64,000 nt of DNA from Octopus sinensis (Eukaryota): positions 74,648,001 to 74,712,000 of the forward strand of contig NC_043004.1 of assembly GCF_006345805.1 (NCBI RefSeq). The letters run 5' to 3'. Numbering within the stretch: the first letter of the stretch is position 1; every line of letters begins with the position of its first letter. The position numbers and the translations under genes are program-made. Positions 4,132 to 63,792 of the stretch are shown piece after piece. The notes under the pieces were generated by a model, which worked only from the letters and a program-made list of their open reading frames with translations, was not told where the DNA came from and did no database searches.

Positions 4132-5388
4132 TATACAGGTCAACATTTAAATTCTGTCTGAAATTTGAAAAAAAAAACAAGTGTTCAAATGTTATATTTC
4201 ACTGAAATTTAATCCTCAATGTACTTTCCCTGACTATCTATGACATCCTTCCATCTATTTACTGGCATTTTAATCCCATCAATGTAAAACTCGTTTGGTT
4301 TCAATGCAAAGAACTCTGAAATGACACTTTCAACCTCCTGCTGGCTTGCGAAAGTTATGTCCCCCAAATGATGCTGTAAACTACGTAACAAAATGTAGTC
4401 TGAAGCAGCAAGGTCGGGAGAATAAGATGAGTGAGGAATATTTTCCCAACCAAGCTCTTCAATATTCTGTGATGTGATATTTGCAGTGTGGGGTCGCGCA
4501 TTGTCCTGATGAAACATCACTCCTTTTCGATTCACTAAAGCGAGTATTTTCTTCTTCAAAGCTTGGTTCAAACGCTCTAATTGCTGAGAGTAGACTTGAG
4601 CATTGACTGTTGCATTAGGCGCTAACAATTCAAAGAGAAGAAACTTTTTCCCATCAAGTTCCCTTCTCGGTTGTGGTTGAGCTTTTCCCTTTTACCAAGC
4701 CACTGTTTACGACATTTAAAATTTCGCTAGAGAATCTATTTTTTCATCACCAGCCACAAATCTATCCAAAAAGGGTGAAATGAGTTCGAGAGAATGGAGA
4801 GAAGAGCACATGTCAACTCGGGATTTGCGGTTGCTTTCGGACAATTCATGAGGTACCAATTTTCCAAGTTTAGGAACCTTTTAAAGTTGTTGAAGAGGAC
4901 GACAAACAGTTGTATGGTTTGAACTAAACTTTGTTGCCAAGTCTTCAACTGATAGTACAGGATTTTCTTCAAGTAATGCCTCAAGGAGCTTATCATCAAG
5001 CTCAACTGGACGTCCTGTTCGATCTTCATCTTCAAGGCTAAAATCTCCACTTCTGAATTTTCAAACCATCTTCTGCAAGTTCTTTCATTCAAGCATCTTT
5101 CCCATAAACTAAGTGTATGTTTCAAGTCGTTTCGGCAGCAGAGTTTCCTTTTTTCTTCTCATAAAGAATTATGTGCCTCAAATGCTCTTCGGATACTTTC
5201 ATGTTAGAAAGGGTTTTAATGAAAGCAATTTTAATTCTATTATTCTGTAAAATAATATTTAATTAGTTTAAATCTACACAAATGCATAAAAATAATTTTA
5301 AACTCCATTGGACATTCTAAAACAGTATTGAATTTCATTCAATTTAAAAAAAGGTAAAATAGGTAACAACTTATGGGATGACCTGATA
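4132..5388 (-). mobile_element. mariner transposon, degraded
   Basis: ORF 4209-4628 has HQDNARPH and YSPDLAASDY; diverged TIRs (TACAGGTCA... / ...TGACCTGATA). Confidence 0.9.
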
Positions 5389-10929: not shown

Positions 10930-13900
10930 TGCAAAGGGAACTCATCCTTCCCATCGTCGACCTGACGTGATATGCACGGACCCGGGTTTCTGAATATTTA
11001 CCCGTCGTCAGCGCACGACAATCACCGGTCTTCGATAAATCTTTATGATCATGCGATCTAACATAGAAAAGGACACAACAAGACAGACAAATACAAAGAT
11101 GTTACATGAGTTCGAATGAGAATTTTAAAAATTTAATTATATGACATAAACGAAACCTTGGCTTACATTTGCCTTTAAACGAATAATTGGCTTACATTTG
11201 CCTTTACAACGAGAACTTTTGTGTTTTTTAAAATAAAACTTGAGAACATAACATAAGCTAAAAAGGAAAAAGGGGAAAATTCAGGTTAAAAATTTTAACC
11301 CGGCAGCCTATAAGGCCCAGCAACTAATTTTTCCTTTCTTCGATGATTAAGCTGGGTTACTAACACCTACCTTTTTCATCACTTCCTTCCATCGTTTTTC
11401 ATATTCATTCGGTGGCAGGGTCTTCCTCTCCAACCCAATCTTGCTCTTCAGATGATATCTGAAGTAATATAGCAAGCCGGGGCTGGAGACAAGGGACCCT
11501 GTCACAATACCTTCCATTTAGCCTTCCATACACACTCTTTCAGTACTGCAACCGTACAGTAAAACCAGGCCTTACCTTCTTTTGTTAGTCCAGTTGGTGG
11601 TATCATCTTTATTATAGATCCAGCCGACAGCTGTACTCGCCCCAGATGCGACAACACGCGTTCTACGTAACTTAAGCTAGATAGCTTTCGACATGTTACA
11701 AAAGCGTGCTGAACGGTTTCAACGTCCAGCACACATCTTGGATATGTCGATGGCACTGGCAAACCGTGCCTGGATAACTTAACGCGAACAGGTAACGCAT
11801 TCCTGTTGCACTGCCAGGTCAGGGATTTGGGGAAGTTATCCAAGTAGCTCGGCCTGAAAGTTTTTTTGAACAGGTTGGCAAGTTGGTTCTTATCGAACCC
11901 CTGAGCCCCTCCTAGGACGTCATCGTTTTTAGCCTCTACCAGCCCTCTATAGAACACCGAGGTGGTATTCTCGCAGCCGGCCTTTCCCGTCTTGTGGGTC
12001 AGCCAGAGTGCCTGACTGCCATAAAGTCAGGTTACGTCTTTTAATGAAACCAGGTTTAAATCTCTCCAAAGAGGCCGCTCGCAGCAAGAACTCCTCTGCC
12101 AACGGACTCCACTCCTTATCACCCTCCAGGTGGCACTAGAGAAGTCTCAGCCTCAACGCATGTCTGTGCATCATTAACCAGGGAATCCCCAAGCCACCCT
12201 TTAGCGGTTCCTGGCGGCACACGGAGCCCCTCACAAGTGGCTTTACTCGTCTCCACAAAAAGCGGAAGAGGAATCGTACCAGCTTGTTTAGCCAAAAGTC
12301 GGGGCAAGGCACAACGGACAGGCGGTAGGTGATTACAGATGCTATAAACACCTGCACCACCTCCACCCTGCCCTTCAAGGACCACTTCCGTACTATGGCC
12401 TCCGCCTTGTCCACTACCTCACTCCAATTATTCTCCGTCTGGGAGTCCGGACCAAACCAAACTCCAAGCAACTTAACAGTGTCCAACGACACTTGACGAT
12501 ATTGGCTTGTTCCTCCAGGTGCCGAGGCGCAAACCGGTAGAGTTGTCCTTGTGAAAGACTTTCTATATCTCCTCCTGACCATAGATCTTGCGCCCTCGCT
12601 CGTCCATTAAAGACTTTATAGAGGACTTTTTACCTCTCTGACTCTCCTCACGACGTGCCCATCCGGCAACATTACTACCTTCTCGCTTCCCTGCACGTAG
12701 CTTGGCCCTGACGCTGCAAACTTCATGCTTGGCGTTGAGGTGGCGGTACAAGACCGTTCTTGCTGCCAACACTCTAGATGCAGAGCCAGATTCCACTGCC
12801 TCGTCTAAGTTGTTAACTAAATCGCCCTGTATTCTAGTCCTATCTAAACTTAGCTGCTTGCTAAATCTAATGGACTCTAAACGGATGGCTCTTTTGAGGG
12901 CGTGCCACCATCTATTGTTAATAATGGTGCCACATAATGCCCTCTGAACTAACATCGTAATCCGGGTACGGAAAGCTTGACAAGTCAAAATAGACTTGTT
13001 CATTTTCCAGTTCCCGGGTCCCTGTCTATGACATTTATCTACGTGTACCTCACACGTCACAAGCTTGTGATCCGTGTAAGGCACAATACAAAATTGTGGA
13101 CAACTAACACTATTCTTATCTCTTTCCTTAATAAATACCCTATCTAGGTACGATCTGTGTGAGCCGTCGTTGTTACTCCACGTCCACTGTGGAACACTCG
13201 GCTCATCCAGTCGGTAACGGTCTACTAGATTATAGCTCTCTTGTAGACCCTTGAGGCAAGGATTCCCTTTCCTATTAGTTGAGCCCACACTGTCGACCCG
13301 TGCATTGAGGATAGTGTTGAAGTCTCCTACCAAAACTAACGTTTTAGATGGCACTAGAAAGTGCTCCAGATTCCGGTAAAAACCGAACAGCCTACCCTCC
13401 ATAAAAGCGTAGAAGCTACCAATCTGAAGGGCTGCCTACTCGCATGAGTCACATCTAGTACAACCAGCCTGCCTTCTAGGTCCAGAAAGACAGTACCTAT
13501 CTGTAAATCCAAGTTCTTCCTGATAAGGACTGCCACACCTGCACCTCCTCCTCGGCTAGGAGAAATAAATTTCTCATAACCACTCAGAAGAGGCGAGAAC
13601 GCTTGAGGTCCACTCATCTTGGACTCGGTTACAATAACCACATCGATTCTATGTGTCGCGAGGTCGTTCAGGAAACAAGCCTGTTTCCATTTCGACCCCA
13701 TTGCACACACATTTAAACAATCTAACTTAATCATCAGAGAAAGAAAAATTGATTACTTACGGTTGTGAGAGGGAGCATGGCAGTTTATGTCTGCCTGCCT
13801 CCCCCACACTCTCCGTTGTTGTTGAGCATTTCACCGGCGTTGCCACCGGGCTCTGGATTGGTGTGGCTGCCAGGCTGATGACCACTCTCCCAGCTATCAC

Positions 13901-20812: not shown

Positions 20813-20869
<57 letters not shown>

Positions 20870-21149
20870 CAACAATTGAGGGTAAAATTAATTAATTAAT
20901 CAATTTCACCAAGTATTCAGTATGCAAAGGGACCATTTAAGGCGAATTCAAATTATTACATTATATAAAAGGGCTTAGTAAAATAAATTACTTTGCCGCA
21001 TACTGAACTCATTAGAAATAGCAGCTAAAAAAACTTTTATAAAACTATTTCTAATACTTAAAGAAAACCTCTCTCATATAGTGTTTGCTCAATTCAACTC
21101 ACGAAAGTATGGGGGTAGAGACATTAAAAAATCAAATGCAAAGGTTATT

Positions 21150-21202
21150 TGAGAACGTACGTTTCAAGATTAGTCAAAATCGACATTTCTATCATCAGCT
21201 CA
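21150..21202 (-). ncRNA. Type-I hammerhead-like ribozyme, one per 559-bp monomer
   Basis: TGAG-CTGATGA-[TAGAAATGTCGATTTTGACTAATCTT]-GAAACGTACGTT-CTCA: core CUGAUGA/GAAA, palindromic helix III, GUU triplet, 4-bp helix I; helix II is imperfect. Confidence 0.55.
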
Positions 21203-23775
21203 GAACTCCCTGGTTTGGATTTGAAAACACTGAAAGTGGGAGCATACCCTTTCGGCTTCTTATCGCTTCTGAAGATCCGCTCGAAACTAACAGTGCCAGC
21301 AAACTCAAATATGCAAGCGAAGAATTTCTGCTCTCCCCTTTCCACCAGCGTGGGTTAAAATCAGTAAACACTATGCTTTTTTCGGTAAAATCCGAGGCAT
21401 TTAAATAGAGAGAGATGAATTATAATTTCAACAATTGAGGGTAAAATTAATTAATTAATCAATTTCACCAAGTATTCAGTATGCAAAGGGACCATTTAAG
21501 GCGAATTCAAATTATTACATTATATAAAAGGGCTTAGTAAAATAAATTACTTTGCCGCATACTGAACTCATTAGAAATAGCAGCTAAAAAAACTTTTATA
21601 AAACTATTTCTAATACTTAAAGAAAACCTCTCTCATATAGTGTTTGCTCAATTCAACTCACGAAAGTATGGGGGTAGAGACATTAAAAAATCAAATGCAA
21701 AGGTTATTTGAGAACGTACGTTTCAAGATTAGTCAAAATCGACATTTCTATCATCAGCTCAGAACTCCCTGGTTTGGATTTGAAAACACTGAAAGTGGGA
21801 GCATACCCTTTCGGCTTCTTATCGCTTCTGAAGATCCGCTCGAAACTAACAGTGCCAGCAAACTCAAATATGCAAGCGAAGAATTTCTGCTCTCCCCTTT
21901 CCACCAGCGTGGGTTAAAATCAGTAAACACTATGCTTTTTTCGGTAAAATCCGAGGCATTTAAATAGAGAGAGATGAATTATAATTTCAACAATTGAGGG
22001 TAAAATTAATTAATTAATCAATTTCACCAAGTATTCAGTATGCAAAGGGACCATTTAAGGCGAATTCAAATTATTACATTATATAAAAGGGCTTAGTAAA
22101 ATAAATTACTTTGCCGCATACTGAACTCATTAGAAATAGCAGCTAAAAAAACTTTTATAAAACTATTTCTAATACTTAAAGAAAACCTCTCTCATATAGT
22201 GTTTGCTCAATTCAACTCACGAAAGTATGGGGGTAGAGACATTAAAAAATCAAATGCAAAGGTTATTTGAGAACGTACGTTTCAAGATTAGTCAAAATCA
22301 TCAGCTCAGAACTCCCTGGTTTGGATTTGAAAACACTGAAAGTGGGAGCATACCCTTTCGGCTTCTTATCGCTTCTGAAGATCCGCTCGAAACTAACAGT
22401 GCCAGCAAACTCAAATATGCAAGCGAAGAATTTCTGCTCTCCCCTTTCCACCAGCGTGGGTTAAAATCAGTAAACACTATGCTTTTTTCGGTAAAATCCG
22501 AGGCATTTAAATAGAGAGAGATGAATTATAATTTCAACAATTGAGGGTAAAATTAATTAATTAATCAATTTCACCAAGTATTCAGTATGCAAAGGGACCA
22601 TTTAAGGCGAATTCAAATTATTACATTATATAAAAGGGCTTAGTAAAATAAATTACTTTGCCGCATACTGAACTCATTAGAAATAGCAGCTAAAAAAACT
22701 TTTATAAAACTATTTCTAATACTTAAAGAAAACCTCTCTCATATAGTGTTTGCTCAATTCAACTCACGAAAGTATGGGGGTAGAGACATTAAAAAATCAA
22801 ATGCAAAGGTTATTTGAGAACGTACGTTTCAAGATTAGTCAAAATCGACATTTCTATCATCAGCTCAGAACTCCCTGGTTTGGATTTGAAAACACTGAAA
22901 GTGGGAGCATACCCTTTCGGCTTCTTATCGCTTCTGAAGATCCGCTCGAAACTAACAGTGCCAGCAAACTCAAATATGCAAGCGAAGAATTTCTGCTCTC
23001 CCCTTTCCACCAGCGTGGGTTAAAATCAGTAAACACTATGCTTTTTTCGGTAAAATCCGAGGCTTTTAAATAGAGAGAGATGAATTATAATTTCAACAAT
23101 TGAGGGTAAAATTAATTAATTAATCAATTTCACCAAGTATTCAGTATGCAAAGGGACCATTTAAGGCGAATTCAAATTATTACATTATATAAAAGGGCTT
23201 AGTAAAATAAATTACTTTGCCGCATACTGAACTCATTAGAAATAGCAGCTAAAAAAACTTTTATAAAACTATTTCTAATACTTAAAGAAAACCTCTCTCA
23301 TATAATGTTTGCTCAATTCAACTCACGAAAGTATGGGGGTAGAGACATTAAAAAATCAAATGCAAAGGTTATTTGAGAACGTACGTTTCAAGATTAGTCA
23401 AATCGACATTTCTATCATCAGCTCAGAACTCCCTGGTTTGGATTTGAAAACACTGAAAGTGGGAGCATACCCTTTCGGCTTCTTATCGCTTCTGAAGATC
23501 CGCTCGAAACTAACAGTGCCAGCAAACTCAAATATGCAAGCGAAGAATTTCTGCTCTCCCCTTTCCACCAGCGTGGGTTAAAATCAGTAAACACTATGCT
23601 TTTTTCGGTAAAATCCGAGGCATTTAAATAGAGAGAGATGAATTATAATTTCAACAATTGAGGGTAAAATTAATTAATTAATCAATTTCACCAAGTATTC
23701 AGTATGCAGAAGCGATAAGAAGCCGAAAGGGTATGCTCCCACTTTCAGTGTTTTCAAATCCAAACCAGGGAGTTC

Positions 23776-23828
23776 TGAGCTGATGATAGAAATGTCGATT
23801 TTGACTAATCTTGAAACGTACGTTCTCA
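23776..23828 (+). ncRNA. Same hammerhead-like motif in the first inverted monomer
   Basis: Identical motif read on the + strand. Confidence 0.55.
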
Positions 23829-26349
23829 AATAACCTTTGCATTTGATTTTTTAATGTCTCTACCCCCATACTTTCGTGAGTTGAATTGAGCAAACACTAT
23901 ATGAGAGAGGTTTTCTTTAAGTATTAGAAATAGTTTTATAAAAGTTTTTTTAGCTGCTATTTCTAATGAGTTCAGTATGCGGCAAAGTAATTTATTTTAC
24001 TAAGCCCTTTTATATAATGTAATAATTTGAATTCGCCTTAAATGGTCCCTTTGCATACTGAATACTTGGTGAAATTGATTAATTAATTAATTTTACCCTC
24101 AATTGTTGAAATTATAATTCATCTCTCTCTATTTAAATGCCTCGGATTTTACCGAAAAAAGCATAGTGTTTACTGATTTTAACCCACGCTGGTGGAAAGG
24201 GGAGAGCAGAAATTCTTCGCTTGCATATTTGAGTTTGCTGGCACTGTTAGTTTCGAGCGGATCTTCAGAAGCGATAAGAAGCCGAAAGGGTATGCTCCCA
24301 CTTTCAGTGTTTTCAAATCCAAACCAGGGAGTTCTGAGCTGATGATAGAAATGTCGATTTTGACTAATCTTGAAACGTACGTTCTCAAATAACCTTTGCA
24401 TTTGATTTTTTAATGTCTCTACCCCCATACTTTCGTGAGTTGAATTGAGCAAACACTATATGAGAGAGGTTTTCTTTAAGTATTAGAAATAGTTTTATAA
24501 AAGTTTTTTTAGCTGCTATTTCTAATGAGTTCAGTATGCGGCAAAGTAATTTATTTTACTAAGCCCTTTTATATAATGTAATAATTTGAATTCGCCTTAA
24601 ATGGTCCCTTTGCATACTGAATACTTGGTGAAATTGATTAATTAATTAATTTTACCCTCAATTGTTGAAATTATAATTCATCTCTCTCTATTTAAATGCC
24701 TCGGATTTTACCGAAAAAAGCATAGTGTTTACTGATTTTAACCCACGCTGGTGGAAAGGGGAGAGCAGAAATTCTTCGCTTGCATATTTGAGTTTGCTGG
24801 CACTGTTAGTTTCGAGCGGATCTTCAGAAGCGATAAGAAGCCGAAAGGGTATGCTCCCACTTTCAGTGTTTTCAAATCCAAACCAGGGAGTTCTGAGCTG
24901 ATGATAGAAATGTCGATTTTGACTAATCTTGAAACGTACGTTCTCAAATAACCTTTGCATTTGATTTTTTAATGTCTCTACCCCCATACTTTCGTGAGTT
25001 GAATTGAGCAAACACTATATGAGAGAGGTTTTCTTTAAGTATTAGAAATAGTTTTATAAAAGTTTTTTTAGCTGCTATTTCTAATGAGTTCAGTATGCGG
25101 CAAAGTAATTTATTTTACTAAGCCCTTTTATATAATGTAATAATTTGAATTCGCCTTAAATGGTCCCTTTGCATACTGAATACTTGGTGAAATTGATTAA
25201 TTAATTAATTTTACCCTCAATTGTTGAAATTATAATTCATCTCTCTCTATTTAAATGCCTCGGATTTTACCGAAAAAAGCATAGTGTTTACTGATTTTAA
25301 CCCACGCTGGTGGAAAGGGGAGAGCAGAAATTCTTCGCTTGCATATTTGAGTTTGCTGGCACTGTTAGTTTCGAGCGGATCTTCAGAAGCGATAAGAAGC
25401 CGAAAGGGTATGCTCCCACTTTCAGTGTTTTCAAATCCAAACCAGGGAGTTCTGAGCTGATGATAGAAATGTCGATTTTGACTAATCTTGAAACGTACGT
25501 TCTCAAATAACCTTTGCATTTGATTTTTTAATGTCTCTACCCCCATACTTTCGTGAGTTGAATTGAGCAAACACTATATGAGAGAGGTTTTCTTTAAGTA
25601 TTAGAAATAGTTTTATAAAAGTTTTTTTAGCTGCTATTTCTAATGAGTTCAGTATGCGGCAAAGTAATTTATTTTACTAAGCCCTTTTATATAATATATA
25701 TATATATATATATAACTCTTCCCCCACTCTCTCACATTTCTCTGTCTTTCTCACTTTGCACTCACAAGCCAATCCTTGGCACGCACTCTTTCTTCTCCCC
25801 TCTTTAATTCCTTCTTTCTCTCTCTTCTCCCCCTTTGTTGCCTTCGTCCCTCTTTTTCTCTCTCTCTTTGTTTCCTTTGCCCCCTTTCTTTTCTCTCTCT
25901 TCTCCCACGTGACCGCTCGTCAAATCAGCCTTTTTGGCCTCCGACCACTGCCGTGAGAACATCGTTGTCTTCGTCTGCCGATAAAGGCATTATTTCCAAA
26001 TACGCCAGCTAAACTTGTTGTACTGTTTATTAGTCGTAAGACACCCGCTGTTTTTGTCCTGTTTTTACCATTATTGTTTTTTGTATTTTATATTCGTGTG
26101 GCATCGTCCGATTTTCTGTCCCTGTTTCGTATACATTCGATCCTTCTTCCAAGAAATCTAATGCTCGTAGCTTAGTTTTTCCTTGGGGCTGGCCGGATCG
26201 GAGCGATCTCAAGATTAATCAGCCGAAATTGCTAGGATGATCCGGTTCTTGACTGAAGATTGAAGGCTTCGAATGTCCCGTCCGTGTTTTTTGTATCTTC
26301 TTCTAAATGTTTTACTTTCTTGTCCCAGTTTTTTATTTTTCTACATATA

Positions 26350-30249: not shown

Positions 30250-33175
30250 CATATGGCCACCACCAACAGATGCAGGATGGCCACCACAAACACCAACACA
30301 CACGTCACAAAAATATTCCTACTAAACGTAGAAGGGCTGTTGCACGGCAACTGTAAAAGGAAAATCTCATTCCTGAGAGACCTTGCGGCATGCAATTAAC
30401 CTCTATGCATGGCACTCATAGAAACGCATCTTGGAACTGATATAGGGGATGCAGAAATAAACATACTGTAATATGTTGTCATACGCTCAGATAGAAAAGA
30501 GAGGAGTCATGGTGGAGTTGCAGTGTACATCCGAGATGACCTCACACCCCAGGTCCTGTTGTCAGAATGAAATTCAGTGTGTGATTCTCAAATTGTACAC
30601 AAAAGACAACTAAATATCGTCTTATATACTACATATCGCCCACCGGATGCCCCAAATCACACAGGCATGTTTGAAGACTGCCTAACAAAAATAGGAGAAG
30701 TTCTCACCAAACTGGAACAAAACAATAGTGTATTCTTCATGGGTGACTTTAACTTCCCCACAGTGGAATGGCCTGGGGGGGGGGGCAGATGCTCCCAGGA
30801 ATGACACACCATCAGCAAGCACAGGCAGAGTCCCGGTTCGACCTCACAAATGCCTCTTTCATTGAGCAAATTGTGCTGCAACCAACCAGGGCAGCCTATG
30901 TATGGACCAAAATCCCCCGCAGGCGCACAGCCTCTACGAAGCATCCACAATCTCTCCAAACTAAACTTTCATAAAGTAAATTGAAAGTTGATTGAGAAAG
31001 AGATCCTCAAACAAGATTGGCCTAAATGTCTTTCCACACCAGACATTGACATGAAACACAAACGTTTCATGTCCATAATACAAGCCATATATAACAAATA
31101 TGTTCCAGTGTGCACGGCCAGCACACACAAAAGCAGGATCCCTAGGGAAAGGAAGATTCTTATGAGACGAAGGGCAAGGATTGCGAACTGCCTGAGCAAG
31201 TACACCAAAAGTGGTGAGAAAAGTCTACATCAGTCTCATGAAAAGGAGAGAGCAGATAAAGAAGCTTCGGTTATAGAAAATATAAAATTAAACCCTAAAG
31301 CCTTCTTTAAGTTTGCCAAAGAGGCGGCCACAGTGCGCCAGAGGATAGGACCGCTCTTCCAAAAAGATGGTTCCCATGACGATAAGTGAAATGCTGAACG
31401 AACAGTTCCAAAGTGTGTTTACTACGCTTCTAGGACACAGGCAAGTAAACAAACCAGAAGAATTCTTTGCCACTTTACCTGTAGCCAAAGAGGCAAAAGT
31501 TGAGTACATTAACATTGAAGATGATGATATCACACTAGCCATAGATGAGATTGACACAAACGCAGCTGCTGGACCTGATGGAATACCAGAGATCCTTCTC
31601 AAATCGTGCAAACGAGCCCTTGCAAAACCACTACAGCTTCTTTTTCAGAGCTTTCTTGCAACTGGTAAGCTCCCAGTCAAATTGAAAGGAGGGATAATAT
31701 GCCCTATTCATAAAGGAGGAAGCAGAGCAGATGCTAAAAATTATAGGCCTATCTCTCTGACCTCACACATCAGCAAAGTCATGGAACCAATAGTCCCCCA
31801 GAAACTAATCATGTTCCTTGAAGAAAATGACTTGCTGACTGACACCCAGCATGGATTTTGACCAGGTAGAAGCTGTGTAACACGGCTCCTGTAACACTAT
31901 GACTGGGTGTTAAAACAGCTACTAAATGGCTCAAGTGTGGATGTGATATATCTCGACTTTGCAAAAGCCTTTGATAAAGTCGACCATGATATGATCTCTC
32001 ATAAACTGCGTGATCTCGGTATAGGCGAAAAACTTGGAGAGTGGCTGCACAACTTCCTAAAAGATAGAAGGCAGGCTCTGGTGGCCAATGGAGCCATCTC
32101 CAAGGAAACACAAATAACAAGTGGTGTTCCACAGGTCACTCTCTTGGGGCCACTGCTGTTCATAGTGGCCCTTTCAGACATGCCCTCAGTTGCTAAGATG
32201 GCCACCTTTGCTATCTATGCAAATGACACAAAATTCTGTCAGACAATACAAAACCCTAGAAATATTGCACATCAGCAACGGGAGTTAAATACAATATACA
32301 GGTGGGATGAGGGCACCAACAAGCAGTTTAATGCAGGTAAGTTCCAAGCCCTGTGCTACCGGCACACAAAGATGAACAACATGCAGAACGGATACACTGG
32401 CCCGGGAAGAATTGCAATTCCTGAATCAAAATCAGTGCATGTCTTGGGCATTGACATGAGCAATGATGCATCTTTCTAAGTGTATATTGCCAATTTGGTA
32501 ATAAAATGCAGACGGCTAGCTGGATGGATCCTCAGAATTTTCAGAACAAGAGAGAAGCAGACACTGATGGTCCTTTAGAAGACATTCGTTCTCAGCCGCT
32601 TGGACTACTGCTCCCAACTGTGGTCACCACACAATATAAAGTTAACAGCAGAAATCGAAGCAATCCAGCGAAGCTACACTAAGAAAATATATTAGCTACT
32701 GGGAAAGACTGAAAGTATTAAAACTCTTCTCCCTGGAACGAAGGTGGGAGAGATATGCAGCAATATACATCTGGAAAATCCTGGAGGGTCTTGTCCCGAA
32801 TTTTGGTATTGAAAGTTATCACAACAGCAGAACGGGGCGCCACTGCATGGTGCCAAAGATCCCAACATCACCATCAAAATACAGGACCAGATACTGCAAC
32901 AGCTTGGGTTTCAAGGGACCACAGCTCTTCAATATCCTTCCTAAATGTCTGAGAGACTTGCATTGTGTGGATGTGGGTTTCTTTAAAACTAAAGTGGATC
33001 TCTTCTTGTCAGGGGTTCCAGATGAACCTACCTCTCGGCAGGAAACACAAACGCGAGCAGCGGCGTCGAACTCCCTTGTTGACCAAGTGCCACGTATAGA
33101 GGTAGTTTCACATACTAGTGTAAGTCATTCAACGGTGGTGCCCCAGCATGGCCGCAAACTTCGAGCTGAAACATT
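30250..33175 (+). mobile_element. CR1/L2/jockey-group LINE ORF2 (APE + RT), degraded, with 3' tail
   Basis: MGDFNFP, NYRPISLTS, YLDFAKAFDKVDH and SGVPQ; ends GGTGGTGCCCCAGCATGGCCGCA...GCTGAAAC. Confidence 0.9.
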
Positions 33176-33899: not shown

Positions 33900-35645
33900 C
33901 GAACGGAACAACAGGACCAAACCCTTCACATATTAACCACCAAACAAAATTCTACCACTCAGAAAATTATCAACATGAAATGCCAGTGAACAGAATATTT
34001 CACCACAACAGAAACACCCCTATCCCAAACGGGAATTCATTTTTAGGACAAGGTGTCTCCAGCAAATGAAAGAAAAAAAAAGAAAACACCACCCTTGACG
34101 AACAAAAACTACAGACACCAAAAATAATCAACATATCGGCCACGAAATGAACACAACAGGAAATCAAACTATTAGAAAACGAACTGAAGTTCACACCCAC
34201 CCCGAAAGCAGATAGAGCCGATTTTATAAAGGACAGAGAAGATATTTGTCGCAAATTACTTCTAGAAGAATTTTTCTAGAATATGACGAGGAATCAGTAG
34301 TGAAAACAAAATGAACTTCAATCCACCACTAAATAGAAACATACACCTGGAAGAATACATAACCTGCCTACGACGATCAATGCAGTATAGCATTATAGAG
34401 ACGAAACACAAATGTAACATCACTACACACCAACTGCTAGCACTAAGCAAACGACAAAACGACTCCTAAATAATTATAAAAGAAGCTGACCAGAGTGGAG
34501 CAATCACCATCATGGCCAAAAAGCACTACAAAGATATGATCCTAGAACAGTTGAATGACAAAGTATTTTACAGGAAAATCAACAAATGCGAGAAAAAATT
34601 CAATGATTAAAGTAGGTAAACTGACGAAAAGCGCCAAAATAACTTCACACTAAAACTAACTTTGAAATGAAAACCAGCATTTTTTATGGATTACCGAAAG
34701 TTCATAAATCCAAAGAAATCCAAAACAACATAAATGGCAAAACGTTGAAGTACCAAAAGCGACAGATTTTAAATTACGCCTAGTTGTTGCTGGACCAGCA
34801 TGCAATGTCTAAGTAAGTTATTAGACATCCTTTTGAAACCCCAATATAAAAAAAGTGCCGAGCTACATCAGAGATGATATGGAATTCCTGAATTATATCC
34901 GCCAGAGAGTACACCAAGATACAATCTTAGTCAGCTTTGATGTAACAAGCTTATATACTAACATCCCACACGATTTAGGAATTGAAGCTGTTGACATCTG
35001 GATTATAAAACATCCAGCTTCCATTTAAGAGAGATTCCCGAAAGACTATTTTGGAAGGGCTCAAATTAACATTGTGGAAGAAGCACTTCCTATTTCATAA
35101 CGAGCTATATTTACAAATAAAAGGAACAACCATGGGCACCAAAGAATCCCCAACATATGCAACACTTGTTATGGGAAACCTAGAGACAAAACTATATTCC
35201 CAACTGCAGGAAACGTTCAGTCACGACTTCGCCACCTACATAAATAACAACTGGAAACGTTATCTAGACTATTGCTTCATCTTCTCGGATAGAAACCAAG
35301 AGGACCAGCAAAGATTCTGCTCCATCATAAATAATCTTCCTGAAGAAATACAAATCACCATGGAATGTAGCAGAAAGGAAGTATCATTTCTGGATATCCT
35401 TATCATTCAAGAAATGGAAAATATCGAAACAGACCTATTTTACAAACCAGCAGACACACATCAATATTTAAATTTCGAAGCAGCACACCCCTCACATAGC
35501 AAAAGGAACATTCCCTTTAACATGATAAAACGCATCTGCACCGTAGTTATACAGTCCACATTACAGGGAAAAAGATTACATGAACTAAATTGGTTCCATA
35601 AAAGACAAAAGTATTCGATGAAGCATAAGGGGTTATATTGAAGGA
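33900..35645 (+). mobile_element. Penelope-like retroelement RT, degraded
   Basis: FYGLPKVHK, SFDVTSLYTNIPH, GTTMGTKESPTYA and FYKPADTHQYLNF. Confidence 0.85.
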
Positions 35646-36109: not shown

Positions 36110-37790
36110 CTTAATTATTATATTATACTTTAGTTTGGTTTTAATTATTACTTACTACATATAGCTCAATTGTTATTATTATCTCTAATTTTTATTTTTA
36201 AAGTGAAATATCTGACATAAAATAGAGAAATGTTTTTGTTTCATTTTTAACACGTAATACTGAAATAGTGGAGAAGATATGATATTGCTATGGGCTCGCC
36301 CTAGGCAAGAAGTTGAACATTTGTTTTTGCCCATGAAACTACATGGACCCTAAGTAAAGCATGTGTAAAATTTGAATGAAATTGGTTGTGTAGTTCTCAA
36401 GTTTTAGGGAATTGTAGTGGAGAAGATATGATATTGCTGTGGGCTCGCCCTAGGCAAAAAGTTAAAGTCTTTTTTGCCGATGACACTCCCCGGACCCTAA
36501 GTAAGGCATGTGTAAAATTTGAATGAAATTGTTTGTGTAGTTCTCGGGTTTTAGGGAAACACACAGACAGACAGACAGACACACATTCTCAGTTTTTTAT
36601 ATATACTAGTATTAAAGACCCTTCGTTGCCGGGTCATAGTGCTAGTACATGTATATATGTGTATATGTATGTGTACATATTACATGTACATCTATATATA
36701 TACATCTACACATAAAATACAAAATACAAAGTTATATCTTGATATCGCTAGTGATAACAATACTCAAAATATATAACAGACTGGAATTGTTAGCCCGTCT
36801 CTTGTAATTTCAATCAATTGTATCTTGCCCTCCCTCTTGTATAGAAGTGTGGCTACAAACCAGCCTACATCTACTTCTGGAGGGGGGGGGGGCGCATTAA
36901 AATTTTTTTCCGGGACGACCTACGTCCAATATATAAAGGTAAAAATAAAATATTTCCACTTTGCAAGTTCGAGTCGAGTACTCCGTTGACTCGACCCTTG
37001 CTTCTGTTGTGGCGAATTTACTGCCTCTGATTAGATATCTTTCATAGTCGAACCAAGACACTTTTCGAAGGTGCTTTCCTCCATGTGTTCAAATCTTCTT
37101 TTTTCTCTACATTGTATACTTTATAGACAATAGTCTTTTCTTTAATTTAATTTTTATTATCCATCTGGACTATTTCATTTCTGCACACTAATTTTATTTT
37201 TAATTTATTCCCATTCATGTTAAACCACTTATTCAAATTCAAGTCATTGATGCAATTTTATACCAATTGCTATTTTTACTTTTGTTATGTTACGATTATA
37301 TTATACTTTAGTTTGATTTTAATTATTACTTACTACATATAATTCAATTGTTATTATTATTTTTATTGTTAAAGTGAAAGTATCTGACATAAAATATAGA
37401 AATGTTTTGTTTCACTTTTAACAAGTAATACTGAAATAGTGGAGAAGGTATGATATTGCTATGGACTCGCTCTAGGCAAGAAGTTGAACATTTTTATTGC
37501 CCATGAAACTACATGGACCCTAAGTAAGGCATGTGTAAAATTTGAATGAAATTGGTTGTGTAGTTCTCAAGTTTTAGGGAATCGTAGTGGAGAAGATATG
37601 ATATTGCTGTGGGCTCGCTCTAGGCAAAAAGTTAAACATTTTTTGCCGGTGACACTCCCCGGACCCTAAGTAAGGCATGTGTAAAATTTGAATGAAATCA
37701 GTTGTGCAGTTATCAAGTTTTAGGGAAACACACAGATAGACAGACAGACAGACACACATTCTCAGTTTTATATATATAAAGATAGATATA
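36110..37790 (+). mobile_element. Non-autonomous Helitron/Helentron-like element with duplicated ~490-bp end modules
   Basis: 36110-36600 resembles 37295-37775, each with ~125-bp internal repeats and (GACA)n; hairpin GACCC...GGGTC followed by CTAG at about 36617-36645. Confidence 0.5.
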
Positions 37791-48221: not shown

Positions 48222-49689
48222 TAGATAAACTTAGATATGTTTCGACCAAAGATTGGTCCAGGCCATGTCTAACTTAATAGCACCACCTGCTAGGATTATT
48301 CGAATCCTGTTTAAGTCAAGTTTTGTTTAAGTCAAGTTTTGTTTAAGTCAAGTTTTGTTTAAGTCAAGTTTTGTTCAAGTAGTGAGTTCTTGTTGGGTGA
48401 GTTGTATCCAATTATGGGTGGCTTATCTGGTATTCTTTGAAGGAATCTATCCAGACTCTGTTTAAAGTTGATGGGATCCTTTTCCTCTTTGATCTCTCTC
48501 GGGACAATGTTAAATAGGGCAGGGCCTGTTGAGGAAAAGAAATTATGTTGTAGTGTACATGTATGTTGTGATCTTGAATTGGGCAGGGGACGTATAGCCC
48601 GTGGTCCAAGTCTTGGATGGACCTTGAAGCTAATGTTTAGGTCGTTTGGGCAAAGTTGGCGGTATATTTTCCACATCGTACAAATGATGTACCGCTCACG
48701 GCGACGCTGTAGGGAGTAACGTTTCAAGGCTTTAAGGCGATCCCAATAATCGAGAGCAGCCATGCCTTCAATTCGTTTAGTGAGTGCCCTCTGGGGTGAC
48801 TCAATTCTGGAGATGTTTTGTCTTGTGTGAGGAGACCACAGTGGGCAGCAGTATTCAAGGTGTAGCCGTACAAAGGAGGAAAAATGTGGTATGATGACAC
48901 CTTGTTCTCTGGACCGGAAAGTTCTTAAGATCCAGGAACACATCCTACGAGCTATATCGACCTTCTTGTTGATGTGTGCACTCCAACTGAGATCGTCATC
49001 AACAATTACACCCAGGTCTCTGATATTGTTAGAGGCTGTGAGCGGTTCCCCTGAAGGAAGAGAGTATGGCTGTTTTAGTGAGGAGTTTCTTCCAAAATGC
49101 ATCAGCTCAAATTTTCCCTCGTTCAGTTGCATTTTGTTTCTGTCTGCCCATTGACTCACAGCATATAGATCAGACTGGAGTTGAGTTCGGTCTGCTTCTT
49201 CATTGACGATTTGCTGGAGCTTGGTGTCATCAGCGAATATTTTCACTTTGCAGTAATGTACGACACTGGAAAGGTCGTTTATGTAGATTATGAAGAGTAG
49301 CGAACCCAAGACAGTCCTCTGGGGGACACCGCTGGTGACTTTTGCTGGGCTTGAGTGGACTCCATCAACTACAACATGTTGTGTTCTATTCGCCAGGAAA
49401 TACTTGATCCAGTGTAGAACTTTTCCACGGATTCCAACATTTGCCAATTTTGAGAGTAGGATATGATGGTCTACCCTGTCGAACGCTTTACTGAAGTCAA
49501 GATATATGACATCAGAGTTCGAACCTGTTCCCAAGGCTTTGAGTACATCTTCAATGTGGTGTAAGAGCTGTGTTAGACAGTCCCTGCCACAGCGAAAGCC
49601 ATGCTGATTTGCATTTAGGAGTTTCTGGGTCTCCAGGAAGTCAGCCATCCTTGATCTTAACACTCTTTCAAACACTTTGATGATGTGGG

Positions 49690-49692
<3 letters not shown>
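48217..49692 (-). mobile_element. Young 5'-truncated CR1/L2/jockey-group LINE in (TA)n
   Basis: Open RT frame (QHGFR, YLDFSKAFDRV, SGVPQ, FADDTK); 16-bp repeat GTTTAAGTCAAGTTTT x4 at the stop codon. Confidence 0.92.
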
Positions 49693-49779
<87 letters not shown>

Positions 49780-49871
49780 TCGTTTCAAGCGGTTGCAATT
49801 AATTTAACAATGCAATCATTACATGTGTATGTGTGTGTGTATTTATTTATTTTATATATGTATATATAGAG

Positions 49872-62495: not shown

Positions 62496-63792
62496 TACGA
62501 GGGGCGTTCAATAAGTAATGCCCCTGACCCACTTCCCATAGCAGTAGAGCAACGAAACTTGGCACAGTTATTAGTCTTTTTCTACATAGGAACCACCCAG
62601 AGTTACACATTTCTCCCATCGTTTGATGCAGCTCTGGCGACCGTTTTTTTAGAAGACCCCAGCTTGGTCATCCGACCACGACGTGACTTCAGAAATCAAG
62701 GCTGCATCATCTGGGAAACGCTTTTCCTTTCAAAAACAACTTCATGGCTGGGAAGAGGTGAAAATCAGAGGGTGCAAGGTCAGGAGAGTAGGGGGATGGG
62801 GAAGGAGTTCATAACCGCACGCCCGTGCTTCTGATCTGGCGACAAGCGAGTTATGGACCGGAGCGTTATCCTGCAGAAGGAGGATACCTTTGCTGATGTT
62901 GCCCCGCCTCTTGATTTTTATAGCTTCTCTTAATTTCCTCAAAAGTGAAGCACAATAGGCTCCTGTAATTGTGGTACCCTTTGCCAGGAAATCTGTCATC
63001 ACTACTCCGTCCTGGTCCCTGAAGACTGTGAGCATGACCTTACCAGCGGAGGGCTGCACCCTTGCCTTCTTTGGAGAAGGTGAATCACGGTGCTTCCACT
63101 GCATTGACTGGGCTTTGGTCTCTGGATCATAGTGATGGACCCAGGTTTTATCCTGTGTAATCAGTCTTTTGAAAAATTTTGACTCATCTTCTTGGCACAT
63201 CTCCAAATTCACCCTCGAGCACTCGACGCGTTCTTGCTTCTGGAAAGGTGTGAGCAGCCTGGGAATTCATCTGGCAGACACCTTTTGCATATGCAAATGG
63301 TCATGAATGATAGTTTCCACAGACCCGGTACTAATCTTGACCTCATGGGCTATTTGGCGAATAGTTATGCGTCGATCTTCCAAAATGGCAGCCTCAACCT
63401 GACGGACAGATGCCTCATCGACGGCAGAAGAGGGGCGACCAGATCTGGGAGCTGTTTCCACAGAGTTCCGACCATGTTTCAATTCACGATGCCACCGTTT
63501 TACAAGGTCATATGATGGGGCATCATCACAATAAGTTACTTTCATTTCATCAAAAGTCTCCCATGGTGTGCGTCCTTTCAAATACAAAAACCGAATCACT
63601 GCTCGACACTCAACAGGCTCCATTTCACACTTGACTCAGTTCAAACACCGGTAAATCAGAAACCACAATTAGTTCAAAGATGTTATTTGCTACTTAATCT
63701 ATAGAGATATAAATAATTGCACATGCAAAATTTCAGCTAGATCAAACAACTGCAAGTGGGTCATGGGAATTACTTATTGAACGTCCCTCGTA
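62496..63792 (-). mobile_element. Full-length mariner, same family as 44199-45491
   Basis: TA-flanked TIRs; WVHHYDPETK and QDNAP motifs; frameshifted. Confidence 0.95.

Follow-up and report, generated by a model that had tools for sequence, protein, structure and literature searches.

The present analysis concerns a stretch of 64,000 nucleotides of the Octopus sinensis genome (assembly GCF_006345805.1, contig NC_043004.1, positions 74,648,001 to 74,712,000), hereafter the window, which contains an array of near-identical repeats between positions 20862 and 25698. This array is best read as a retrozyme without long terminal repeats (non-LTR retrozyme) that would insert as a non-autonomous Penelope-like element (PLE). 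In our view, it is rather probably a protein-less repeat bearing a hammerhead, inserted very recently in the form of two head-to-head arms; a PLE likely provided the mobilising enzyme in trans, and the template was probably an RNA circle of 559 nt. The affinity with retrozymes and Penelope, as well as the very recent age, had been proposed in an earlier note on this DNA and are supported by the comparisons described below.

The repeat unit measures 559 bp and, in the right part of the array, 1424 of 1424 positions agree at a lag of 559. About 8.65 copies extend over ~4.8 kb, in agreement with the ~8.6 near-identical monomers initially counted, and the only differences between them are 2 substitutions and two deletions, of 1 nt and 12 nt. 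As first noticed, no credible protein is encoded: the sole notable open reading frame (ORF) of the unit, 108 amino acids long, has no Pfam match. However, the array is not the simple head-to-tail series that had been described. It is made of a minus-strand arm and a plus-strand arm, the 5′ ends of which meet at a 2-nt overlap (CA, 23707-23709), with (TA)n on either flank. The left arm (20862-23708, minus strand, 5.1 units) has its 5′ end at unit position 344, at the junction, and its 3′ end at unit position 408, the long site L, where GAAATTATA is followed by TA. The right arm (23709-25698, plus strand, 3.55 units) has its 3′ end at unit position ~310-313, the short site S, where TTTTATATAAT is followed by ATA. 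Thus, one end is tailed and the other is not, the 95-nt 'tail' (unit 314-408) being found at the end of the left arm only (20862-20956, minus strand). The left target tract (20816-20865; 25 copies at 100% according to TRF) shares TATA with the arm end, and the right one lies at 25690-25714.

Nine hammerhead motif sites are found in the array. Five are on the minus strand (21150-21202, 21709-21761, 22268-22308, 22815-22867 and 23374-23425) and four on the plus strand (23776-23828, 24335-24387, 24894-24946 and 25453-25505, with predicted cuts after 23824, 24383, 24942 and 25501, respectively); the first of these cuts coincides with the position proposed previously. The claim that each copy carries the motif is therefore slightly inexact: eight of the nine sites are intact, whereas that at 22268-22308 lacks 12 nt in helix II (deleted at 22299/22300) and is likely dead. 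At 23374-23425, the loop of helix II is shorter by 1 nt. From cut to cut, a monomer RNA of 559 nt is predicted (23825-24383, plus strand). Downstream of the hammerhead, the unit carries a conserved structured 3′ domain (unit 215-408, one internal copy of which lies at 24482-24675, plus strand), with a hairpin, a box GCTGCTATTTCT..TTCAGTATG, a long stem around site S and a hairpin before site L. This domain is likely the region where a reverse transcriptase (RT) would bind and start.

The unequal ends of the window array recur at other loci. A DNA search of the 2.72-Gb genome gave 1,150 candidates, the best 38 of which were scored (hereafter the 38 best-hit loci). Simple two-armed arrays account for 28 of them, one-armed, 5′-truncated copies for 8 and complex arrangements for 2. 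In 26 of the 28 two-armed loci, one arm ends at unit ~408 (L) and the other at ~306-325 (S), a pairing with p=1.5e-6 against an expectation of 50%; of the remaining two, one (L047) has L at both ends (408/408) and one is unclassifiable. Sites L and S lie ~95 nt apart, the termini being unequal by this length in these 26 loci. TA is present on both sides of 26 of the 28 loci, and both sites are TA-rich and continue into the target. Two further samples gave the same picture. Among 45 stretches ordered by position, 14 two-armed elements could be scored; 13 are L+S and the fourteenth, scored 'LL', is S+L on reading. Among 30 further, diverged stretches, all 11 two-armed elements are L+S, two of them (L108 and L109) being likely duplicates.

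The inner (5′) ends of the arms are scattered, only 1 of 56 being near the ribozyme cut, and at the junctions they correspond to unrelated unit positions in the two arms. The 28 junctions comprise 17 overlaps of 0-9 nt, 10 small gaps and one 44-nt palindrome (L031). It was also observed that 5 of the 56 arm 5′ ends in the 38 best-hit loci fall at unit 274-277, where the strongest conserved stem has its edge; RT might stall there. At one locus (L040:4482-4745), a young arm lies beside a patchwork of an old hammerhead element, its snap-back copy and an inverted unit fragment. A chimeric insertion, in which a different hammerhead element would have been joined head-to-head to an arm of the family, was considered there and rejected, since this neighbour differs from every scored relative by 11-16% and is therefore much older.

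The unit of the family carries a predicted type I hammerhead that covaries across subfamilies ~68-93% identical. In the window, the motif at 23776-23828 reads TGAG-CTGATGA...GAAAC GTAC GTT-CTCA. Helix I is formed by TGAG/CTCA, the core by CTGATGA and GAAA, and helix II by AGA/TCT, a 3x3 internal loop and GTCG/TGAC; helix III is the palindromic ACGTACGT and the triplet is GUU. The hammerhead covariance-model search suggested by the earlier note did not detect it: Rfam hammerhead models have no match in the window at E<=10, nor in three diverged loci at E<=5. This is likely because helix II is long, and an Rfam match was therefore not taken as defining. Moreover, when folded in isolation, the motif is no more stable than shuffled sequences (z 0.06-0.56). 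The support for the hammerhead is thus comparative, and on this comparative ground, namely core matches over the whole genome and covariation, the predicted type I hammerhead with palindromic helix III stands. In an alignment of 22 sequences, picked by a filter that required 3 bp of helix I in addition to the core, 96.3% of the helix cells are paired and 11 of 15 pairs show two-sided changes, whereas 0 of 500 shuffles reach as high and slid controls give 24-44%, it being understood that related sequences can exceed shuffles. A second set consists of 11 full subfamily units picked by box spacing, the ribozyme not being used in the choice. There, the core is not lost from diverged copies, an outcome that the earlier note would have held against its reading: the first core box is kept in 11 of 11 units (in one as U3-A8) and GAAA in 9 of 11. 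In the U3-A8 unit, C3·G8 of the core is replaced by U3·A8, helix I is wholly changed and the triplet is GUC; this swap is a known variant of PLE hammerheads (Cervera 2014, PMC4209133). In the relatives, helix III is palindromic or near it though its letters differ, and, in the subfamilies where the filter found a core, this core is located 117-131 nt upstream of the 3′ box. As for the reservation previously expressed about the GUU triplet, GUU is indeed present in the window unit, but it is not fixed, since relatives have GUC or GUA; GUU is listed among the cleavable hammerhead triplets (PMC3138052). Calculated folds with one active site favour the dimer (-17.8 kcal/mol) over the monomer (-1.6 kcal/mol).

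Two variations on the motif may be mentioned here. The subfamily with the U3-A8 core, in which all 6 bp of helix I have changed and the triplet is GUC, is found at L304:2945-3504. In diverged subfamilies (L062:6053-6163, L180:850-965 and L254:1643-1729), helix II is stretched to an AT-rich hairpin of ~50-80 nt.

The family is large. The genome-wide copy survey that had been recommended returned 3,602 matches to the core pattern (3 for the reversed control) and 17,998 matches to the conserved 3′ box (control 0). From the fetched loci, 11 distinct full units were obtained, 545-644 bp long, 68-93% identical to the window unit and with a GC content of 0.32-0.36. The circular monomer folds with -144 kcal/mol (z -5.4 versus 40 shuffles) and its antisense with -123.5, so that the sense strand is favoured, and 26 of 65 pairs of the whole-unit consensus show two-sided changes across subfamilies; one covarying stem pairs unit 262-275 with 342-356. 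In young loci, the best-kept segments are the 3′ domain (17 of 99 positions vary) and the tail (8 of 95, counted as positions with a locus-fixed change); in other segments, 23/60, 14/54, 29/93 and 41/141 positions vary. As to expression, sequencing runs of three organisms contain the unit in part, none of those listed being registered as RNA. Four runs guessed to be RNA have 28-60 family contigs each, with boundary-crossing ones in all four, though such contigs show neither ends, strand nor circles. For a neighbouring repeat that is deep in the large run X15, three guessed-RNA runs gave 0, 0 and 1 contigs, missing coverage being no proof. No unit promoter was identified by a bacterial promoter scan, the model of which is uninformative here, and no similarity was found in phage records.

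What was the template of the two arms? Since the arms cross several ribozyme sites, it was not a cut linear monomer. Variants fixed at a locus are nearly always common to both arms (82 versus 4 arm-specific), and divergence is 0.82% within arms, 0.80% between arms and 1.97% between loci. In addition, 13 of the 38 loci have private variants, 16 in total, that have become fixed from unit to unit, which requires re-amplification from a single unit. Of the variants confined to single units, 147 have no mirror in the other arm, mirrored pairs number 5 against 4.5 expected, and sharing between adjacent units amounts to 11 against 8.3 expected. Arm-to-arm conversion around the junction is unsupported (3 versus 4.1 expected). 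Thus, unit-specific variants are not inherited in register, which fits a monomer circle, the template already proposed by Cervera in 2014 (PMC4209133) and 2020 (PMC7229834).

The same genome contains candidate helpers. Young elements with RT and GIY-YIG domains, a CxxxxCxxC linker and intact frames of 775-784 amino acids are present and may be called Neptune-like after the linker described in Craig 2021 (PMC8557442). The family with the 784-amino-acid frame sits in (TA)n; in 7 of 7 fetched two-armed copies, one short end is paired with one long end, the sites being TATAT-like and the tail 38 nt long. In an older hammerhead family, the partner arm is short in all 13 cases. The search for a GIY-YIG partner sharing the 3′ or pseudo-LTR sequence of the unit scored 150 of 5,029 candidates, with 30 loci and 30 larger stretches examined, and is in this sense incomplete. 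In 70 fetched stretches, the sequence upstream of the box matches contained no in-frame partner. A ~72%-identical family had no match to a PLE protein within 1.5 kb, and no solved structure matched the PLE protein. A PLE beside a family array in L106 was considered as autonomous partner and rejected, being a separate insertion with its own ends.

Some features of these PLEs are worth recording. The 784-amino-acid family is very abundant, with 19,406 first-look candidates (L106:2016-5200, L178-L187, including G000:C3:57.63 Mb), and combines its RT-GIY-YIG frame with an overlapping upstream ORF of ~440 amino acids in another frame and with a U3-A8 hammerhead. A second young Neptune-like family (L228-L235, L241-L243) encodes 781 amino acids, with an upstream ORF of 479 amino acids, a U3-A8 hammerhead (TTGATAA...GAAACATGT) and two end sites ~38 nt apart.

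Considering these data, the following scheme may be envisaged. Its starting point is seen in the sequence, where the tandem unit combines a conserved type I hammerhead with a structured 3′ domain, likewise conserved, lying 117-131 nt further downstream. Multimeric transcripts would cleave themselves, best as dimers through the palindromic helix III, and the monomers would be ligated into circles. A PLE RT-endonuclease would then cut both strands of a (TA)n tract, as the ends suggest, and the two DNA ends would serve as primers on one RNA, reverse transcription starting from each at its own internal TA-rich site, S (~313) or L (408). Each RT would travel several times around the template before stopping at random, and the two cDNAs would be joined end to end, head-to-head. 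The outcome would be one tailed and one untailed arm. At times, uncut linear multimers would also serve as template.

Several observations weigh against this scheme or against parts of it. On the ribozyme side, the filter used for the 22-sequence alignment means that only helices II and III and the spacing count there as independent. The active fold is the energy minimum neither of the monomer (-7.1 kcal/mol) nor of the dimer (-22.3 kcal/mol). Conservation of the core among 53 young loci does not significantly exceed that of the remainder of the unit (2 of 11 versus 130 of 531 positions changed, p=0.47). Some multi-unit loci carry core mutations throughout: A6C in both units of L035, and U4C (CCGATGA) in every unit of four loci (L283, L284, L289 and L310), which belong to one subfamily with ~543-bp units and are still multi-unit. 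Hammerheads with U4C retain partial activity, as seen in work on viroids. Furthermore, 8 of 9 Xenopus retrozyme dimers were not cleaved in vitro (Li et al. 2026, bioRxiv 10.64898/2026.07.22.740005). On the template side, 4 of the 5 mirrored pairs belong to a single locus, L059, where the two arms match in register when counted from their 3′ ends and where one of the variants affects the core (A15.1). This locus was copied from a heterogeneous uncut linear multimer, which supports a single RNA for both arms but shows that linear multimers also work. Also, single-unit variants may correspond to assembly errors, which would inflate the unmirrored count and weaken the mirror test. As regards the helper, the 784-, 781- and 775-amino-acid families and the other GIY-YIG loci sampled share no DNA homology with the unit, and the 95-nt tail and the distance from cut to start are unlike those of the two active PLE families.

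Many of these points would be accommodated if insertion followed the same two-site PLE route but the template were an uncut linear multimer, the hammerhead being weak or a passenger and the arrays being homogenised and regrown by local DNA amplification. The in-register variants of L059, the core mutants fixed in multi-unit loci and the ordinary variability of the core among young loci all go in this direction. It also has published grounds: in vitro, the ribozyme of the PLE Poseidon is protein-assisted yet dispensable for insertion (PMC11167929), and local amplification has been proposed by Li et al. (bioRxiv 10.64898/2026.07.22.740005). However, private variants fixed over all units and both arms in 13 loci, mirrored pairs that overall remain at chance and an adjacent-unit sharing barely above expectation are not what such a template would leave. 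In addition, core and helices are kept in subfamilies ~68% identical, with a compensatory core swap. We therefore regard a linear multimer as the general template as unlikely, albeit deserving serious attention.

The head-to-head form itself might result from self-priming, or fold-back, on an antisense template, a model published for head-to-head PLE copies of rotifer Penelope (PMC3846280) and with which the L031 junction, inside its 44-nt palindrome, agrees. However, the other junctions join unrelated unit positions, 17 of the 28 by short overlaps and 10 by small gaps; the outer ends of both arms lie at fixed TA-rich sites of the sense strand, and structure is conserved on that strand. This origin thus appears quite improbable. 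A foldback or miniature inverted-repeat (MITE) DNA transposon, with long terminal inverted repeats built of tandem units, would explain the inverted arms and the TA target; it is very improbable because the termini are not identical but ~95 nt apart in 26 of 28 loci, 8 of 38 copies are one-armed and 5′-truncated, inner ends are random, and RNA structure and ribozyme covary on one strand. It is equally hard to believe that the inversion or the homogeneity is an artefact of assembly or polishing: the evidence comes from the assembly, and other loci show 1-4% of indel-rich noise, but the two-site geometry is seen again at over 50 loci, extends to subfamilies that have diverged and to PLE families that are unrelated, and loci have their own haplotypes.

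Returning to a retrozyme copied from a circle by a PLE, a bolder version may be put forward, tentatively. A dimer of the RT-endonuclease would sit on one circular retrozyme RNA, its protomers priming both ends of the (TA)n break at two fixed sites, and the two RTs would chase each other round the circle to give a palindromic multimer. The rule of one long and one short end, observed here in three families, might then be general for PLE tails and head-to-head copies, and the retrozyme would parasitise the PLE through RNA structure alone, without shared sequence.

Apart from the array, the window contains two similar tandem doublets of 146-147 bp, ~1.2 kb apart (36266-36558 and 37437-37727). A further element with a hammerhead may have left its decayed 3′ end at 26253-26345, where a CTGAAGA...GAAT GTC motif precedes a (TA)n tract by ~65 nt. 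The segments at 48359-49798, 31895-32479, 35009-35641, 11502-13435, 4209-4691 and 62742-63266 are unrelated to the array and consist of fragments of non-LTR retrotransposons (RVT_1, endonuclease, zf-RVT) and of mariner-type transposases.

The octopus family may finally be compared with known systems, within the accessible parts of the cited papers. Like metazoan non-LTR retrozymes (PMC7229834), it has non-coding tandem units with GC below 45%, one type I hammerhead per unit with a palindromic helix III, thousands of copies and co-existing PLEs; even the U-U at the base of helix II in the window unit is found in the axolotl HHR_Amex2 (PMC7229834). However, its units are longer (545-644 nt versus 170-400 nt), helix II is extended, with a conserved 3x3 internal loop, the hammerhead is missed by Rfam, and the circular RNA is, for the octopus unit, only predicted. 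Two-armed head-to-head insertions with paired fixed ends are not described in the accessible text of that paper, where the word 'inverted' has 0 occurrences. The family also resembles endonuclease-containing (EN+) PLEs of the Neptune/Nematis type (PMC8557442, PMC4209133), in which partial tandems, an inverted 5′-truncated arm, a tail at one end, a microsatellite target, a hammerhead upstream of the 3′ end and the U3-A8 variant are all reported. Compared with these PLEs, the array family has no ORF, a tail of ~95-100 nt instead of 30-40 nt and up to ~11 units per arm.

A further parallel is provided by Poseidon of Anolis, for which two internal RT starts, with both strands cut and extended, have been observed in vitro (Frangieh 2024, PMC11167929). 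As here, these two starts define a tail and both lie downstream of the hammerhead cut. However, Poseidon starts have no target homology and are used equally between strands, whereas the octopus sites are TA-rich like the target, with one of each per insertion. That retrozymes are non-autonomous elements depending on PLEs, with units of up to 972 bp, has also been proposed for vertebrates by Li et al. 2026 (bioRxiv 10.64898/2026.07.22.740005); MRC1-type non-autonomous Chlamys belong to the same comparison. The basis differs, being co-occurrence and pseudo-LTR (pLTR) homology in that study and insertion geometry and haplotype sharing in the octopus family, and the sampled taxa, as listed in the accessible text, include no mollusc.

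No description of an octopus retrozyme, of the octopus family or of the strict end pairing was found in the literature, subscription journals, Repbase and supplements being outside the scope of the search. In the main text of a 2026 octopus repeat annotation, 'ribozyme' has 0 occurrences; its supplements or repeat library may hold the family under a neutral name. A large family, with ~18,000 box matches, is missed by Rfam, and its hammerhead variant covers GUU, GUC and GUA as well as both core pairings. How animal retrozymes reinsert and why PLEs form tandem, inverted and tailed copies are questions that the papers call open. The octopus family leaves a countable record of both, with paired start sites, an arm haplotype in common and copying through many ribozyme sites, and the intact young candidate helper proteins of the same genome make both questions testable by the existing in vitro assay. 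The retrozyme class and its link to PLEs are already in print; the insertion geometry of the octopus variant is the new part.

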